This document shows positions 2,919-52,604 of a DNA stretch of 64,000 nt, piece by piece. The notes under the pieces were generated by a model. The model did no database searches and was not told where the DNA came from. It saw only the letters and a list, made by a program, of their open reading frames with translations. Location: IMG/VR virus record IMGVR_UViG_3300020548_000009, positions 1-64,000 of that record. One strand, 5' to 3'. The DNA comes from a virus. Numbering within the stretch: position 1 is the first letter of the stretch; the number at the start of each line of letters is the position of its first letter. A program made the position numbers and the translations under genes.

Positions 2919-3042
2919 CTTCACCTCCATAAGACCAGTGTATCACACTTTTAGTGGTTTCGCAACTCGTTCCGCAAGATTTTGCCCCTGCGCGAACTTC
3001 GGGCTGAGAGGGCACTTCTCGTCCCCCTCAGCCCTTGCGCTC

Positions 3043-3240
3043 TTAGGCGTTGGCGTTTTCTTTCTTTGCCTTCACGGTTGGGTTTCCCAACTTGCGAGCG
3101 ACATCTACGATGTCACCAGTCAGGTTCAGGAACACCGTTCCGTTCTCTCCGTCTCGGAGTTCAATGCTCAACATTCCGTTGGTCATTTCTGCCGTGACAT
3201 CGTCCGCGGTGAGGTGGACGAATAGGTGTGTGCTTATCAT
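3043..3240 (-). CDS. Hypothetical early protein
   Basis: Start MISTHLF after AAGGAAGG. Confidence 0.7.
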   Translation of the reverse strand: MISTHLFVHLTADDVTAEMTNGMLSIELRDGENGTVFLNLTGDIVDVARKLGNPTVKAKKENANA

Positions 3241-3416
3241 TTCTGTTTCCTTCCTTGTTGTGTAAGGCGGTTGCCCTACTACTATTAGTGTATCACACTT
3301 GCGAGAGTTTCGCAACTCTTTGCGCCACCTTTTTTAGATTCTGCCCCAGCGGCCTTCGCTGGGCGAGTTTGGGGTGGCAAGGCAAGGAGGTAGAACCCTG
3401 CCACCCTCACTCGTTC

Positions 3417-3704
3417 TTATCGGGCTACGGCGAGCGAAGCCTTGTTCAGGGCATCGCTACTCTCTCGCCATGCGTCGCTATCGGCTGTCTCTCCGTAGAA
3501 CGCTTGACGATAGATACGCTTGCCTTTGTGGTACAACTCAACCATAACGGCGTTTGCCTTTATGCTGTCGTCGTATGTCACTTCGGCTTCGTAGGTGACT
3601 TTGGTAATCTCGTCGTAAGCCCACCCCGTAGGGAATAACTCACTGGATACCTCAATCCACTCGCCCGTTCGTTTTGCGCCTCTCGGCAGTCTGTAATAAC
3701 TCAC
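3417..3704 (-). CDS. Hypothetical early protein
   Basis: ORF with GAGG SD and promoter at 3753-3781. Confidence 0.7.
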   Translation of the reverse strand: MSYYRLPRGAKRTGEWIEVSSELFPTGWAYDEITKVTYEAEVTYDDSIKANAVMVELYHKGKRIYRQAFYGETADSDAWRESSDALNKASLAVAR

Positions 3705-5740: not shown

Positions 5741-5803
5741 GTTTCTCCTTGGCCTCCGGGCGGCGGCTGGTGGGGCACTTCTCGTCCCCACCAGCCTGAC
5801 CCG

Positions 5804-6621: not shown

Positions 6622-6769
6622 TGTGTTTTCCTCCATGATGTTAGTATAACAGATGTTTTGCGGTATTGCAACCTTCTTTTATTCCTTTATTGCCCCTGCC
6701 GGCTTTGCCGGAGGGAGGTCTTGGGCTGGTGGGGGAAGGAGGTAAGGAACCCCACCAGCCGCACTCGAC

Positions 6770-7036
6770 CTATGCTTTCAGTGTATCACACTTTTCACGC
6801 TCTCGCAACTCTGCCAGCGTGATTTCACCCTTTATCAAGGATGCCCACTCTGATAGGTCTGCGACATTGAGACGCTCCGGCTCGGTGCCGCAAGGGTACT
6901 TGGCGGCTTGGTGCCAAGCCTTTGCGTCACATTCTCCGCAAACGGGCGTGCCGTCAAACGACCACCACGAATGCGTGAGGTAGTTAGCCTCAGCCTCTTC
7001 TTTAGTTCCCTGAAACGGGACTGGAACATTTGCCAT
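6770..7036 (-). CDS. Small Zn-binding-like protein (CxxC...H...C)
   Basis: Start MANVP; CGECD...WHQAAKYPCG. Confidence 0.65.
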   Translation of the reverse strand: MANVPVPFQGTKEEAEANYLTHSWWSFDGTPVCGECDAKAWHQAAKYPCGTEPERLNVADLSEWASLIKGEITLAELREREKCDTLKA

Positions 7037-8592: not shown

Positions 8593-8776
8593 ACTCTCAT
8601 TATACGACCTGTTAGACAAATTAGCAACTCTTTTAGTGAACTTTCTGAGTGGCCGGCTGACCACGGAGAGTGACCTCGGCCCCTGTGGCTTATTTGCATG
8701 GCTTGCAAATAAGCAACTGTTGTGATTTGCCCCTGGGATGGGCGGGCAGGAAAGGATTGCCTGCCCACCCTCCGCG

Positions 8777-8995
8777 TCAGGAGTTTGCCTCCATTTCGCA
8801 GAATCGTTCCCATAGGTCTTCTTCGGTGTTGTAGCGGTCGCCCAAGTCATCGACGCCAATCGGTCTGCCCGTGGCACCGCACCATTCGTAGAAGCGGTCT
8901 ACCTTTTTCTTCCAGTTAGCGTAAGTGCTAACAAGTTGAGGGTCGCCCATCCAGACAAATCCCCGGTACGGACGGCTCACTATTTTGCTATTCAT
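8777..8995 (-). CDS. Hypothetical early protein
   Basis: ORF with AAAGGA; ends TEEDLWERF. Confidence 0.7.
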   Translation of the reverse strand: MNSKIVSRPYRGFVWMGDPQLVSTYANWKKKVDRFYEWCGATGRPIGVDDLGDRYNTEEDLWERFCEMEANS

Positions 8996-11461: not shown

Positions 11462-11482
11462 TTATCCACAGGCTGTGGATAA
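11462..11482. promoter_or_regulatory. Inverted pair of perfect DnaA boxes, 3 bp apart
   Basis: TTATCCACA-ggc-TGTGGATAA. Confidence 0.75.
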
Positions 11483-11537
11483 CTTTCGGCCCGGGCCCCC
11501 GTTGTTTATATACAAAGCGTTATGGGTTTTGCCCCTG

Positions 11538-11599
11538 CGCGAAAATATGGTGTTCCATGAATATTGGTTTTATTTGGGCAGCGGCCGTTCCCTTGGGGC
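11538..11599 (+). repeat. Dispersed repeat copy 5
   Basis: AAAATATGGTGTTCCATGAATATTGGTTTTATT...GCCGTTCCCTTGGGGC. Confidence 0.9.
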
Positions 11600-11605
11600 C
11601 AGGGG

Positions 11606-11692
11606 GCCCGCCCAGGACAGAAAGGGAATAAGAACCTGGGCGGGCGCCACACCCGACGACTGGGACACAAGGAAGGAAAGACCCAGCCGCGT
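11606..11692 (-). ncRNA. Candidate two-hairpin anti-RBS sRNA
   Basis: Promoter TTGACA-N16-TGtCATACT (11698-11725); two stems with C/U-rich loops complementary to phage RBSs. Confidence 0.6.
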
Positions 11693-11732
11693 TGTCAAGT
11701 ATGACAGTTATTTTATTTATGTCAAGCAGCCG

Positions 11733-14121: not shown

Positions 14122-14802
14122 CTAGACGCCAAGAAGTTCGGCTACTGCCTCGCTTCTCTTCTCTCTGTAGACATCCGAATACTCGGTTCGCCAGTCGCTC
14201 TGCTGGTCCAAGGCTTCGTCTATGTCATCTTTGTCAAAGAGTTTCGCAAGTTTCTTTGGCATCTGTGGCTCTTCGCCCTCTTCGTATGTCATCTCGCCGT
14301 TACGGAATACGGAACAGCCGACAAAGGCGTCTCCTTCTTCCGTGTAAACAAGTGAGAACACGAGCGTTGGGAACTGCTTGGAAATCTGTCTGATGAGACC
14401 TTCGGCAGGCGACCACGCACTCTCAAAGTATGCGCCGATGTATTTGGCATCATCGTTTACTTTGTCGTTCTTGGTGACAAACGAGGTCCAGTCAAATTGG
14501 CAAGCACCCCACTTGGTTCCCCAATTGGCGTTACACCACGAGTACCAGTCTCTGTGACCGTACTTCTTGATGTTCTCTTGCTGTTTGTCTTCCAGTTGCT
14601 TCTGCTCTTGCTCGTCACTGAACCAGCCAGATGTCGTGTTGGTGAGTTCTTCTGGGCAAGGGAAGAGGTGGTTGAGACCGGTAGTTTCTTTGGTCTCGCC
14701 AGTCTCTTCGTCTTTGTGGGTTGTCTTGGTGGCGTCAACGAGCCTTCGCAGTTCGCTGACCTCACCGTGTACTTCTAATTCGTTATAGCACCAGTTTGGC
14801 AT
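14122..14802 (-). CDS. DUF1281/YubB ferredoxin-like domain protein
   Basis: MPNWCYN, DWYSWCNANWGTKW, FESAWSP motifs. Confidence 0.8.
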   Translation of the reverse strand: MPNWCYNELEVHGEVSELRRLVDATKTTHKDEETGETKETTGLNHLFPCPEELTNTTSGWFSDEQEQKQLEDKQQENIKKYGHRDWYSWCNANWGTKWGACQFDWTSFVTKNDKVNDDAKYIGAYFESAWSPAEGLIRQISKQFPTLVFSLVYTEEGDAFVGCSVFRNGEMTYEEGEEPQMPKKLAKLFDKDDIDEALDQQSDWRTEYSDVYREKRSEAVAELLGV

Positions 14803-14859
14803 TTCTTATTCCCTTTCATTGAGTTGGTTATTGCTTACACTTACATTGTAGCACAATAA

Positions 14860-34957: not shown

Positions 34958-37900
34958 TTATCCTATGCAGGTATTGGTCGCTACACACGTAAATCCTGGT
35001 TCGCATGGCGGGTCACAGACAGGAGGAGGGCTTACTGGCGGAGTAACAGGAGGTGTCACCGGCGGAGTAACTGGCGGAGTAACTGGCGGCGTGACCGGCG
35101 GAGTAACAGGCGGCGTGACCGGCGGAGTAACAGGCGGCGTGACCGGCGGAGTTACCGGCGGCGTTACCGGGGGAGTGTAGATGCCGTTACAGTCATTCGG
35201 CGCGTTCTGGAATGGCGCAAGGCATTGATTTTCATAACCACAAATTTCGTTAATGTAAAGGAACGTCGTGCATAGTTGACCCTCATAGGAAGGTTCCACT
35301 GGAGATACTGGGTCAACCGGGGCAACTGGACCAACTGGGTCGACCGGGGATACTGGGTCAACTGGGCTTGGCGAACCAGCGCACTCTTCAAGACAATAAA
35401 TTGTTTCCGTGTTGTCATCATGAACAATGCGGGCAAATAACGTAAGGGTATCTGCGTCCCAAAAGAATCCGATTCTGTCCGTGTAATCATTTGCTTGATA
35501 TTGAATTCCTTCTTTCCATACTGCAAGTTTTTCTGTTGTTGCCGGGTTGCCATCAGATGCCCACAACTCAAGTTTTTCCCATGTCAAAATTGATTTTGAA
35601 CCAAATGAGTCAATGCTTTCTGGACCATTCAATTTCATTCCTGCCGCGTCATACCCTTGACTGTCCGCCCATCCTTCAGCAGAATCAAGGTTTCCAATAA
35701 ACATATTCCCCAAGAATGTGCCGCCAAGTTGTAGATATCCAGGTTGTATTTCCAGGTCTCCGATTTTTCCTGTTGCTGCAGTCATGTAACCAGCATTTGT
35801 TACCGAAAATGGAGCATTGCTTATGCTGGCGGAACCGGACCACATGTCTCCATTTGCACCAACGTGGAAAGATGTGGCGTCAAAACCACCAATATCAATT
35901 GTTGAACCAATAATTTGACCAGCAAAATATCCGTCAACTGTGTAAAGGTCACCAGTCACGGAACTAATTTGAGTTACCAAATCTCCGGCGTTATTGAATG
36001 CTCGGAGTCCTGAAGAATCTATGATAATTCGAGGATTAGATGTAGATGTTTGGAGCGTTGGTGCGGTAAGTGTTCCTTGAACCCATGTGCCATTTCGTAC
36101 TGTTACTGAGTTGAGTTCTGCATCTCCAGATGCTTCAATTGTCCATCCGCTTGTGTCTGCAACATAGTTGTTTGAGCGGATTGCTCCGTTGAACAAGACC
36201 TGAGCGCTTGCCGAAGCGGTGAAGGAAAACGGAGGAGATGGCACGCCGGACTGACCGTTTGTCGTATATGGAAGAATTGTAAATTGGTATTCTCGCCCAG
36301 GAGCAGCAAGATTCTCAAACACTGCAGAGTTTTTGTCTGCGGCAACCGTGGCCGAGTGACGCTCAACAATTCGAGTTACGTCTCCGACAGATGCTGTTCC
36401 TGTTGGGATGTCTGGGCCTACGTCGTCAAATGTAAAAAAAGTTGCTGACGCACTTGTCAAAAACACAAGAGTTCTGTCAAAGTATCCGTCTGTAGTGCCA
36501 GTGATATTGATTAAGTCGCCAACATTAAAGCCATGCTGGTCATCGACTTCTGCATAAGCAATATTTCCGTCACGGTAGATGTCGACAATTGGATAACTAA
36601 TTGCTATTCCAACACTGTTTTGCTCTTCTCGGTAAACAATCGCTTCGTAATGAGTAGCGCTTGTGTTGTCTGGGGATTCCCAAGAGGCAACAACTCTGTT
36701 GCTCATCCCAACAACTTCAGCGCCAACAGAAGTTCCTGTTGGCGCCAACGGCTTTGATGATGTGCCGCGAAGCGTAAATGTTGGTATTTCAGCAGCACCG
36801 AGACGCCCGTAGTTTGCTGCGTACTTTAGGTTGCTTGCAATATCCTGAAAGATGTCTCCGAAAGTGACTTCAATTGTTTCGTTGCCGTTTTCGTCGATAG
36901 AAGCACTTATCGCACTGATAATTCGTTCGCTGAATACTCCTGTATCAATTTCCACGAGTACTTTGTCGCCAATGTCAAAGTCTTCCCACGCGGTCATGCC
37001 GTCTCGCTCAGCAAATGATGTGGTTATTTGCAACTTGCCATCGCGAACCTGGCGAACCGCAGAGGCAGTGATATTTGCAACGGCCGGAGCATCTTCCGAC
37101 GTATTCTCAATAAACATTTCACGGAAACCGTAAGTTCCTGTGCGGTCAGAGATTTGCCTATCCAGATTGAACCCGTCCGAGCCATAAACAACTGTTCGTA
37201 GTTCAGAAACTGACGTTCGTGTTTCTACGGTCTCCAGCATTGGAAGACTAAAAATGAGTGCTGCAGAACCACTGGTCATGTCATCGCCAAATGGTTCGTC
37301 AAACACAATTGTGTCAGTGGTAAACGGCCTTACTGCAACACTGATAACGCCGCTTGGCGAGACATGCCAATCCACGCCAGTATTTGCGGAAACTTCGTTT
37401 ATTACATCAAGAAGAGTTCGGCCAACTGCAATGTTGAAGTTTCCTCCATCTCGAACGACTCGCCCTTTCGAGTCTGTTTTACCCAAAGATGATGTGAGGG
37501 TTGCATCAAGAGAAAGTGGCCAGTCAACCGCGTATCCGATTCCTCCACGGCCGTTAAGAGTTTTGATTGCGCCAAAGTCTTCCTTCTTTGTCGAATACTC
37601 ATAGCCAGTATCTGCTTCTGTAAAGAGGATGTAAAAGGCAGATATTCCAGTGAACGCACCAAGCGAAACTTCGGTCCAGACAATGCTTACTGAGCCAACT
37701 TGATTTGATGATGTCAGACCACCATTTGATGTAATAGCAAAAGATTTATACCCATTAGTTGTTCCTTCATTTACGAAGGCTGCGTTGCCGACTTCAAGGT
37801 CTGAGATTGGACTTCCGTCTGCCCTTGCAGTGCGCTGAATAACCCAAGGATTTGAAGAGCCACCAATAGAAACAATCCAATAGACACCGTTATGGGCTTG

Positions 37901-49910: not shown

Positions 49911-52604
49911 TCAGCCTTCTTCAGGCTCTTTCATGTGCAAATACATGGCGGCGGCGATTGCCAGAACTGTTGATACTCCAGCAATTCTCTGAATAGGCCC
50001 AGACAAAGTTAAATACACAACAAGTGAGCCAGCAATCGTAAAGCCCATGTTGAGCAAGCCGTAGACGAACTTCTTGATAAATGCTTTCCAGTTCATAACC
50101 TTCACCCCATTTACATATCTGTAAATACTTATACTCTTAATCCAATCCAGACCGTCGCCGGCAATTTCGCCAGCAGCCTCAGATTCTTCCTCTTCATTCC
50201 GTCTAGTGGCTGTGTCTTGCTTTGTAGTCGGAGAAGAACCGCTAGGGCCACCGGAACCACCGGAACTTGGCCCGATTGGACCACTGGCGCTCAGCGCGGC
50301 TGCGGATGCCGTGAGCAGGCTTGCGGCAACGACGGTACGACGCTGTCCAACATCGATGGTTTGGCCCAGCATCGTGTAATTATCAAATGCACCCTGGAAT
50401 AGGTCCACAACCTCTTCAAACACCCCTCTAATGGCTTCTGGAGCGCTCTGGACGGCCTCTACGACTGCCTCTGCCTGCTCATCGCTAAGGCTTTCTGCGG
50501 ATACCTGCTCAAAGACCGCCTCTGCTTGGGAGGAATCTATGGACTCAAGTACGGCTGCGCTAGAGGCCAACTCTGCAGCCACCGAGGAATCAACACCAGC
50601 GCTTAAGACCGCCTCAACCACAGCGACAATCTTCTCCTTTTCTTCCTCTGTGAGTTCTTCAACTGGCTTGTCTTCTGAAATTGAGTCAAGAATGGCCCCT
50701 ACGACGGCGACCAATTCCTCTTCGTCAGTGATTGATTCTAGAACTTCCCCAACAGCCTCAATGATTTCTTCCGCCGAAGCATCATCATTAAGAACTGCAT
50801 CTAGTTCCTCAACTATTTCTGTTACAGTTTCATCTTGTGGGGATTCTGATTCTGTTTGGCTTTCTTGGTTTTCTGGTTCTGTCGTCTGTGGCTCTTCTTG
50901 CTGTCCTGCTTCTTCATCAAGTGGAAGAGTTTGCTCCTCATCAGGCTGAGTCTCAATCGGAGTAGTCGTTGCTGTTTCGTCTTCTTCTTGAGGCGGTAAA
51001 GTCGTGGGTGTCGTTACTGAAGGCTCTTCGTCTTCATCGGGAAGAGTCGTATCAGTCTCATCAGGCACAGTCGTTCCAGGCTCGGTCTCTTCTGGCTCAG
51101 GAACAGTGGTTGTCGGGGGAGGCGTTGTCTCCACGGGAGGAACAGTCGTCGTGGTCTGAGGGGCGACATAAACAGTCGTAGTTGTCGTAGTTGTGGTTGT
51201 AGTAGTTGTAGTTGAATTCGGGTCAATAACAGTTGCATCAACAGTTACTTCGGGTCCGTATACACACGGACCTACGCCTTCGCCAGAGAAGCAACTTTGA
51301 TTTCCCGCTTTAATGCCAAAGCGCACAGGTCCAAATCCAGTAGTTACGGGGTTGCTTCCAGAAAACATTCCAGTACTTAGCGAGTAGTTGGTGCCTTGGT
51401 TAGTCCACACACCCCAGCCACCTGACGTTGTTCCGCCAATTTCATCAAGGTCGTAAAAACTAACTGAGTAGCCGTAGACATTTAAGTTGCTTGATGCTGG
51501 AGCATCCCAGTCAAGGTCTATGCTTCCATCTGCGTTTGCTACAGCAGTGAGATTTGTGACTGCGTTGTAATATGGCGCAACCGTCGTTGTTGTAGTCGGC
51601 GGAACAGTAGTAGTTGTGGAAGTAGTCGTAGTTGTAGTCGTTTCAATTGCAGGGGCAGTTTCATTATTTGGCTGCACGCCACCAAATGTTGTGCAATTGC
51701 TTCCATCTGTGGCGCAACGATTTGTTACGCCAGCCGTATCATCAATCATTAACACTGGAGACAATGCGGTGTCGCCAAGGTTGAAAGATGCAAATCCAAG
51801 TTTGTATGTTCCGGTTACGGAAACTTCATAAGTGGAGGTTTGCCAGCCAGTTGAACCGTATGAATTAACCGAGTAGTCGCCAGTTCCTGGATTTGTAAAT
51901 CCCAAAAGTGCATACTGTGCTGTGTAGTTGTTAACTTTTATTACTGGAGTTGACCCAACCGTCACCGGAACAAGGGAAGTTATCGAGCCGTCGTTAAATG
52001 GAACATAGTCAGTACCGACATAGTTCCAGGACATCGTGTATGTAACATCTGCCGTCAACTCGACTTCTTTGGTAATCCAAGCAGCATTGGTTGGATTTGG
52101 GCTTCCGTTGCCGGATGCCTGTGCATCTGCTATCAATTCATTTTGTATTGCTGTTTGCGGTGAGCCGGACAAGCCGAGTGCTGACATTGCGGCCGAAAAG
52201 GTTGCCTCGTTATTCTTTGGCTGCAGTAAAGCAGCGTATGAATTGTTGTTTGGAGAAAATGTCCAACTTCCTGCTGCAACAGCAGGCGCATAATACTTAT
52301 TTGGCTGACCGTTTACCGTTGGACTGCCCATCGCGCCGTGGGGGCCATGCGTAAATGTTCTGGAACCGTTAAAAACAGAAACACCTGTTCCATTTCCGTT
52401 AATGGATGCACCAAGAGTCCCAGTCTGTGAGCCTTTGTCCCACCCAGTTAGGTTGCCAGCCTCAAATCCAGCACCTTGTATCGATTGTGATGGTATTCCA
52501 GTTGAATCTGCTACGGCCGGATACACGCCTATCAGCGCAATAAGAAGGGACACCGGGCCAAGAATGCGGGCAAGTGCTTTTCGGTGGCGGTTCAGCGTAG
52601 ACAT
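49911..52604 (-). CDS. Large secreted/membrane-anchored protein with Fn3-like domain, poly-Thr linkers and acidic stalk
   Basis: Signal peptide (..AVA-D), Thr runs, two C-terminal TM helices. Confidence 0.75.
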   Translation of the reverse strand: MSTLNRHRKALARILGPVSLLIALIGVYPAVADSTGIPSQSIQGAGFEAGNLTGWDKGSQTGTLGASINGNGTGVSVFNGSRTFTHGPHGAMGSPTVNGQPNKYYAPAVAAGSWTFSPNNNSYAALLQPKNNEATFSAAMSALGLSGSPQTAIQNELIADAQASGNGSPNPTNAAWITKEVELTADVTYTMSWNYVGTDYVPFNDGSITSLVPVTVGSTPVIKVNNYTAQYALLGFTNPGTGDYSVNSYGSTGWQTSTYEVSVTGTYKLGFASFNLGDTALSPVLMIDDTAGVTNRCATDGSNCTTFGGVQPNNETAPAIETTTTTTTSTTTTVPPTTTTTVAPYYNAVTNLTAVANADGSIDLDWDAPASSNLNVYGYSVSFYDLDEIGGTTSGGWGVWTNQGTNYSLSTGMFSGSNPVTTGFGPVRFGIKAGNQSCFSGEGVGPCVYGPEVTVDATVIDPNSTTTTTTTTTTTTTVYVAPQTTTTVPPVETTPPPTTTVPEPEETEPGTTVPDETDTTLPDEDEEPSVTTPTTLPPQEEDETATTTPIETQPDEEQTLPLDEEAGQQEEPQTTEPENQESQTESESPQDETVTEIVEELDAVLNDDASAEEIIEAVGEVLESITDEEELVAVVGAILDSISEDKPVEELTEEEKEKIVAVVEAVLSAGVDSSVAAELASSAAVLESIDSSQAEAVFEQVSAESLSDEQAEAVVEAVQSAPEAIRGVFEEVVDLFQGAFDNYTMLGQTIDVGQRRTVVAASLLTASAAALSASGPIGPSSGGSGGPSGSSPTTKQDTATRRNEEEESEAAGEIAGDGLDWIKSISIYRYVNGVKVMNWKAFIKKFVYGLLNMGFTIAGSLVVYLTLSGPIQRIAGVSTVLAIAAAMYLHMKEPEEG

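Follow-up and report, generated by a model that had tools for sequence, protein, structure and literature searches.

The window analysed here comprises 64,000 nucleotides of DNA from the start of an 84.7-kb IMG/VR virus record, in which nearly all genes lie on the minus strand. As the record encodes a tape measure, a major head protein, a protease and an endolysin, its source is a siphovirus-type phage. The phage is present in many lake-water metagenomes. Its host is probably an actinobacterium, as suggested by the relatives of its DUF932 protein in actinophages and by Shine–Dalgarno (SD) sequences that fit a 16S rRNA tail ending CCUUUCU. A search for tRNA and tmRNA genes found none.

Small early-type genes occupy 1–22 kb and are grouped in units. 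The promoter GTTGCGAAA-N-TGTGATACAAT recurs in these units, and the leaders are rich in purines, following the pattern ACACAAGGAAAGGAAACACA-AUG. Between 2649 and 12762 the units share a 5′ leader (repeat families D6 and D11–D13) in which a small hairpin of the GUAGUGGGGCAACCGCCUCAC type directly follows the promoter. The leaders there also carry a long purine-rich ribosome site matching the 16S tail that ends CCUUUCU.

Read along the minus strand, the locus runs from the stop codon of the upstream gene (11733) through a promoter-like site (11698–11725), hairpin A (11656–11690) and hairpin B (11606–11645) to a repeated intergenic element (11526–11605). This module always lies directly upstream of the DUF932 unit. 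The gene upstream of it varies by clade, while the block downstream is constant: after the repeated element come a GC palindrome, two perfect DnaA boxes in inverted orientation and then the DUF932 promoter. In the window the DnaA-box pair (11462–11482) is a perfect inverted pair of consensus nonamers, TTATCCACA-GGC-TGTGGATAA, with the GC palindrome before it and AT-rich sequence after it; with small changes, every relative has it there too, after the repeated element and ahead of the DUF932 promoter.

The promoter-like site is of the sigma-70 type. It has TTGACA at 11725–11720, a 16-nt spacer, TG at 11706–11705 and CATACT at 11703–11698, so that its −35 and −10 hexamers fall within the usual spacing of 16–18 nt. 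In a consensus scan it scored 10/12 with the TG and was the second-best match in 6.5 kb, and transcription is predicted to start at about 11692, at the base of hairpin A. Five contigs of the window clade, with four different upstream contexts, carry the block TTGACAT..TAAAATAACTGTCATACTTGAC unchanged, which suggests that the putative promoter is part of the module in this clade. In the relative G004, the block overlaps the end of an extra small ORF. The preliminary description of this DNA had called the RNA promoter-driven, which agrees with the predicted promoter kept in the window clade but not with the other clades: in three of them no convincing promoter was found before the twin hairpins, which there come after the stop codon of the upstream gene.

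A conserved two-hairpin RNA

Hairpin A, on the minus strand like all the features of the module, has a 9-bp stem (GCGGCUGGG/CCCAGUCGU) with two G–U pairs and a 17-nt loop, UCUUUCCUUCCUUGUGU, at 11681–11665. The linker that follows (11646–11655) holds the 3′ part of the invariant word CGUCGG. Hairpin B has an 11-bp GC stem (GCCCGCCCAGG/CCUGGGCGGGC) and an 18-nt loop, UUCUUAUUCCCUUUCUGU, at 11634–11617. The predicted folding energies are −15.7 kcal/mol for hairpin A and −28 kcal/mol for hairpin B. All the features of the two-hairpin element proposed earlier were recovered in place on the minus strand.

Eleven distinct homologues were obtained from lake phage contigs. Four are IMG/VR viral contigs found by a search with the downstream DUF932 gene, and seven are metagenome contig types found by a pattern scan. 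The same two-hairpin fold is present in all 11, with compensatory changes in 10 of the 18 predicted pairs even when a plain MAFFT alignment is used. The stem arms occur in seven or eight variants. Pairing is kept across the seven 5′-arm variants of hairpin A, and at least five unrelated stem sequences of hairpin B are all still paired, several of them with U–G wobbles.

The loops are more conserved than the stems, with 92% identity across homologues for loop A and 79% for loop B against 63–71% for the stems. Invariant columns are concentrated in the loops and the linker, where CGTCGG is present in 11/11 homologues. Loop A always has UCC(C)UUCC(C)UUGUG and loop B always has UCUU..CCUUUCUG; the middle of loop B is variable (U, A, G or deleted), even among close relatives. 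Loop length ranges from 13 to 18 nt. The loop cores, invariant in the 11 homologues and held open by covarying stems, form a conserved single-stranded candidate seed.

The conserved G–U pairs, among them the basal G–U pair of hairpin A found in 11/11 homologues, would be C–A mismatches on the plus strand, and the fold is therefore assigned to the gene-sense (minus) strand. Plus-strand loops of the SD- or CsrA-like GGA type were ruled out on the same ground. The statement in the preliminary description that the RNA has no ORF was borne out, since the overlapping small ORFs are without a ribosome site and the differences in loop length among homologues are not multiples of three, which breaks the frame; these ORFs were discarded as genes. 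A pseudoknot of loop B (UUCCCUU) with the downstream AAGGGAA of the repeated element was also considered and rejected, the pairing not being kept in relatives as judged by eye.

The stems are GC-rich, as in an intrinsic terminator, but the loops are 13–18 nt long and there is no U-tract after hairpin B. The sequence at that point is CCCCUGGCCCC, and a scan for a terminator gave only a trivial 5-bp alternative.

A covariance model built for the element found exactly one copy per genome, at 74–101 bits, and gave no match in more distant DUF932 phages. Rfam gave no match for the whole window at the gathering threshold and no meaningful match for the locus at E values up to 10, and blastn of the locus against GenBank phages gave no match. 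DNA contigs of near-identical strains showed no differences in 11606–11725, and two raw-read runs did not contain the phage. No RNA run was among the sequencing runs listed for it. Judged by its fold, strand, conservation and single copy per genome, the element is a real conserved structured RNA motif.

Sister hairpins and the repeated element of the early region

A uniform scan of five early regions identified four to seven strong hairpins with pyrimidine-rich loops per genome. As the early regions hold this wider set, the twin hairpins are best regarded as the most elaborate members of a class. In most of the pyrimidine-rich loops the 16S rRNA 3′ tail (the anti-SD core), (C)ACCUCCUU(UC), is present; the twin loops resemble complements of the phage leaders more than they resemble this core.

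One sister element (6724–6808, minus strand) has an early-type promoter, with the −35 at 6808–6803 and the −10 at 6785–6780, and a hairpin at 6760–6724 whose loop, UUCCUUACCUCCUUC, carries the anti-SD core. The putative promoter and the hairpin are both kept in G004. This promoter overlaps the end of gene 6770–7036, a second small hairpin follows the first, and there is no ORF. Further sister hairpins on the minus strand directly follow stop codons, one at 3372–3406 (after gene 3417–3704; loop UCUACCUCCUU) and another at 8740–8770 (after gene 8777–8995; loop CAAUCCUUU).

Resemblance to the 16S tail exceeded that in shuffled sequences. Among 120 strong hairpin loops of at least 8 nt from the five genomes, 20 share at least 7 nt with the tail GAUCACCUCCUUUCU, compared with a mean of 2.5 and a maximum of 7 in shuffles, these counts including orthologous hairpins and therefore not being independent events. 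No SD-sense matches were found among the 120 loops.

The repeated element adjoining the twin pair lies directly 3′ of hairpin B on the minus strand and reads CCAAGGGAAC .. AAUAAAACC-N9-GGAACACCAUAUUUU .. CAGGGGCAAAA. The element is about 70 nt long. The window holds nine co-oriented copies on the minus strand between 1559 and 21429, with cores at 1603, 5264, 7634, 10108, 11556, 13529, 18002, 20446 and 21367. Five related genomes together hold 48–49 copies, and no opposite-strand copy was found in any of the five. The consensus is CCAAGGGAAACGCC-N7-10-AAUAAAUCC-N9-GGAACACCAU(A/U)UUUU-GGG..CAGGGGCA(A/G)A, and the internal spacing is fixed.

RNAalifold detected no conserved RNA structure in 48 copies of the element, and its role as a structured terminator RNA was therefore dropped. 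Its place, after the 3′ hairpins and ahead of the next promoter, makes it seem likelier to be a DNA site (protein-binding, promoter-like or stoperator-like) than a structured RNA. No phage RNA polymerase that might use the element as a promoter was found when the large proteins encoded in the 84.7-kb record were examined; this record is only about 64% complete. The word CAG(A/G)GGCA(A/G)A is found after many 3′ hairpins and also at the end of most copies of the element (for example 6695–6703, the flank 8748–8740, and 11531–11523). It occurs 10 times in sense and 0 times in antisense orientation in the early 32 kb of the window, and the relatives are biased likewise.

The placement of the hairpins allows a reading of the twin pair that involves no pairing in trans and is, though rather unlikely, the main alternative to the explanation preferred below. 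The hairpins may be purely structural 3′ ends that terminate or stabilize the upstream early transcript, in the manner of GC hairpins lacking a U-tract, or block 3′ exonucleases, with pyrimidine loops that are bound by protein or kept merely so as not to attract ribosomes. Hairpins with pyrimidine or anti-SD loops do begin 5–15 nt after stop codons, commonly directly 5′ of the repeated element, and ordinary GC hairpins with tetraloops occupy the same position at other unit ends. A terminator or stabilizer would, however, need no loops of 13–18 nt with a fixed sequence, and in these hairpins it is the stems that vary more than the loops. The region shows no enrichment of canonical terminators (9 found, 8.0 expected), so that unit ends must be made otherwise, and the position of the twin hairpins behind a stop codon, with no convincing promoter, in three clades also speaks for such a role. 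Two of the hairpins nevertheless have their own predicted promoters with no ORF behind, and the module travels with the downstream block rather than with the clade-variable upstream gene. Loop–leader pairing that is mostly no better than composition predicts (see below) is also consistent with a structural role, but the enrichment of the loops for the 16S tail is strongly strand-specific.

Complementarity of the loops to early leaders

The preliminary description had assigned one target gene to each loop. The best match of loop B, GAAAGGGAAUAAGAA (14803–14817, minus strand), immediately precedes the start codon (AUG) of the DUF1281_C gene (14122–14802) and is a perfect complement of 15 nt with a predicted energy of −22.3 kcal/mol. 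The best exact match of loop A, ACAAGGAAGGAAA (3246–3258, minus strand), lies in the leader of gene 3043–3240 and is a perfect complement of 13 nt (−20.2 kcal/mol). Both complements proved to be exact, running from 14817 to 14803 up to the ATG and from 3258 to 3246, respectively. They are the two longest complements of the RNA in the whole 84.7-kb record, and both are at ribosome sites.

When mononucleotide-shuffled loops were compared with any leader, a 13-mer match had P of about 0.003–0.013 and a 15-mer match was obtained in 0/2000 cases. The shuffled controls suggested in the preliminary description thus show the two matches to be rarer than in shuffles, but the leaders they were scored against are a repeat family. 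Exact words of at least 13 nt are shared with another leader by about 8% of the early leaders, and it is therefore not very improbable that a sequence antisense to a typical leader should match one leader this well.

An orthologue of the DUF1281 gene is present in all relatives with enough sequence. In the relative L187, which has a 98% identical DUF1281 protein and the same loop B, the leader GAAAGGGAAUACAAA allows 11 contiguous pairs only. The pairing comprises 8 nt in G004, 8 nt in G003 and G002, and 6–7 nt in G001, L183, L188 and L240, where it is confined to the SD core. Loop A keeps 12 nt with the leader of the 3043–3240 orthologue in G004 only, neither side having changed there, and no orthologue of this gene was detectable in three other genomes. 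The long 13- and 15-nt matches are specific to the window strain.

A dedicated repressor acting in trans on two genes, in which loop B would block the DUF1281_C gene and loop A gene 3043–3240, is distinctly unlikely in the light of these comparisons. Its strongest points are the length, position and rarity of the two perfect complements, together with the two substitutions by which the window DUF1281 leader differs from those of L187 and G004, both of which lengthen the pairing (from 11 to 15 nt), and the 12 nt retained by loop A in G004. The identical loop B of L187 nevertheless pairs over 11 nt and the loops of other relatives over 6–8 nt; close relatives differ at the loop position facing the match; and one of the two genes is undetectable in three genomes. 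The conserved or co-varying complementarity of seed and target that marks a trans-acting sRNA was found neither among the relatives nor across genomes. A five-by-five matrix of loops by leaders showed no preference for the own genome, and loops and leaders gave no sign of the co-evolution for which the preliminary description had proposed to look. On this evidence the 15- and 13-nt matches are the strongest local cases of a general affinity and not a conserved, dedicated target pair.

The general affinity is directed at a recurrent word of the early leaders, ACA(C/G)A(A)GGAAAGG, to which the loops are complementary. In loop B, the core that never varies, CCUUUCUG(U), is complementary to a word common in the leaders, (A)CAGAAAGG. 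Among five genomes, 9–10 leaders have a perfect complement of at least 8 nt to loop B in G004, G003 and G002, compared with about 2 for shuffles (P 0.003–0.017); this enrichment was not seen in the window or in G001. By duplex energy, loop–leader pairing was no better than that of shuffled pyrimidine-rich loops in most combinations of loop and genome, among them both loops for G001 and G004. As far as these comparisons go, the affinity that survives is that of a generic complement of the SD core.

Action in cis is about as unlikely as the two-gene repressor. On read-through RNA, the SD of DUF932, the gene that follows and whose leader has ACAGAAAGG, would be paired with the loops, so that only transcripts begun at the proper promoter would be translated. 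This arrangement would resemble the pairing of 3′ and 5′ UTRs in icaR, where a 3′ UTR is known to hold an anti-SD motif that pairs with an SD (PMC3868564). The module is always directly upstream of the DUF932 unit, and between loop B and the DUF932 leader there are 9 contiguous pairs (13/14) in the window and 9 in both G004 and L253. The match falls to only 6–7 nt in G003, G002 and G001, the hairpins are separated from DUF932 by about 300 nt and another promoter, and the predicted promoter of the hairpins themselves would be hard to explain.

It is highly improbable that the hairpins are decoys of the 16S 3′ end which soak up a host factor that recognizes or cuts the anti-SD, for example a MazF-type toxin released by infection, and so protect the ribosomes: many sister loops copy ACCUCCUU(UC) exactly, several loops contain (C)ACCU or UCCUU, and single-strand-specific toxins that remove the anti-SD occur in Actinobacteria, with MazF-mt11 cutting at CACCU (PMC12274833), but the twin loops are without the CCUCC core and resemble leader complements instead, and for this phage neither such a toxin nor such a host is known.

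Proposed function and related RNAs

The best explanation of the twin hairpins, with a probability of about 45%, is that they are a multi-target regulatory RNA of the anti-SD type, of the same kind as cuckoo, 6C and RsaE. The preliminary description had proposed an RNAIII-like repressor of translation acting through its C/U loops. What stands of this is the conserved gene-sense RNA, the constrained C/U loops and an anatomy that fits an SD-directed regulator; the two named targets do not.

The regulatory RNA would be transcribed along with the early genes. In the window clade it would have its own sigma-70-type promoter with a start at about 11692, and in the other clades the module would serve as the 3′ untranslated tail of the gene before it. 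The GC clamps are expected to keep the pyrimidine-rich loops of 13–18 nt single-stranded. The loops would then base-pair with the purine-rich SD regions (GAAAGG or AAGGAA, often after ACA) of many leaders, chiefly those of the phage's own early messages and possibly also those of host messages, and this pairing would hinder binding of the 30S subunit. At least three other early-region hairpins with loops of the 16S anti-SD core may act together with the twin pair. The predicted outcome is a dose-dependent brake on SD-led translation as early RNA builds up, and the twin-hairpin RNA probably damps translation broadly. That the loops are fixed while the leaders drift could equally be compatible with a protein partner.

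A broader proposal, which is unlikely, concerns all the stable hairpins taken as a family, of which each genome has four to seven, the twin pair included. With part of them expressed from dedicated promoters, and with loops that mimic the 16S 3′ tail or complement the phage's own leaders, they might amount to an RNA-only reprogramming of translation initiation during infection. Such a system could take two versions, either a global throttle or host shut-off acting at SD sites, or a set of decoys shielding ribosomes from anti-SD nucleases. If this were true, phage hairpin RNAs that mimic the mRNA-docking sequence of the ribosome would provide control of translation by RNA only during infection, in abundant, uncultured freshwater phages whose hosts are probably without Hfq-type chaperones. 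The motif is well defined by its covarying stems and fixed loops and is suitable for RNA family libraries.

The regulatory RNA preferred here can be set beside several known systems. Phages shut off early genes with proteins such as T4 RegA and RegB, and the c4 antisense RNA of phages P1 and P7 has one dedicated target operon with co-varying sites. Like the proposed element, these are phage-encoded and aimed at ribosome-binding sites of the phage's own genes. The present element is an RNA, unlike the RegA and RegB proteins, and no dedicated target is supported for it, unlike c4. In Staphylococcus aureus RNAIII and in the Rsa/RoxS RNAs with UCCC loops, C-rich loops pair with SD regions and block initiation, and the proposed model shares this pairing of a C-rich loop with the SD. 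RNAIII is a 514-nt RNA of 14 hairpins that also encodes hld; the twin element is about 90 nt long, has two hairpins, is not homologous to it and lies in a phage.

In its build the element resembles the cuckoo RNAs, which have 2–4 hairpins with variable stems and a fixed CCUCCUCCC loop in each (PMC4615179). As in the cuckoo/alpha-r14 sRNAs CcsR and NfeR1, adjacent hairpins with variable stems carry fixed pyrimidine loops of the anti-SD type (PMC4615179). The twin element has two such hairpins, whose stems covary in the 11 homologues, and both the cuckoo RNAs and the present hairpin class are multi-copy within a genome. The loop motifs are different, UCCUUCCUUGUG and CCUUUCUG here as opposed to CCUCCUCCC; the full loops, UCUUUCCUUCCUUGUGU and UUCUUAUUCCCUUUCUGU, are not of the cuckoo form, and no Rfam model, including that of the cuckoo family, matched at E values up to 10. 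Furthermore, cuckoo RNAs are chromosomal genes of Alphaproteobacteria, and the twin element is borne by a phage at the ends of early units.

The 6C RNA of Actinobacteria is also small, with two hairpins whose pyrimidine-rich loops are the proposed mRNA-binding sites for many targets; these C-rich loops bind their targets without a chaperone (PMC6486639). The 6C loops are C runs that bind G-rich sites, in contrast to the mixed C/U loops of the phage-encoded element. Runs of about six C, as expected of a 6C member, are absent here, as is a 6C match in Rfam up to an E value of 10.

In icaR, a pyrimidine anti-SD motif of the 3′ UTR pairs in cis with the SD of its own message and recruits RNase III (PMC3868564). 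A pyrimidine anti-SD motif in a 3′ untranslated region is likewise found here, but there are several loops per genome and some have their own predicted promoters. Absent from Rfam and without a match in GenBank phages, the motif is, going by these likenesses of form, a phage-borne version of a known kind of regulator.

Other repeated sequences were observed in the window. Two GC hairpins on the minus strand, at 5765–5796 and 3001–3034, have different stems and an identical purine-rich loop of 10 nt, ACGAGAAGUG. In G004, G003 and G002 this loop, as ACGAGAAG[C/U]G, is present in one copy each, without exception in the sense orientation. The purine-rich 10-nt loop is perhaps a separate conserved loop family and a candidate protein-binding site. 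Short-period coding repeats lie within large tail/fibre genes at 35012–35366 and 51166–51661, and include 12-nt GGCGGAGTAACN units and 9-nt GTAGTTGTN units.
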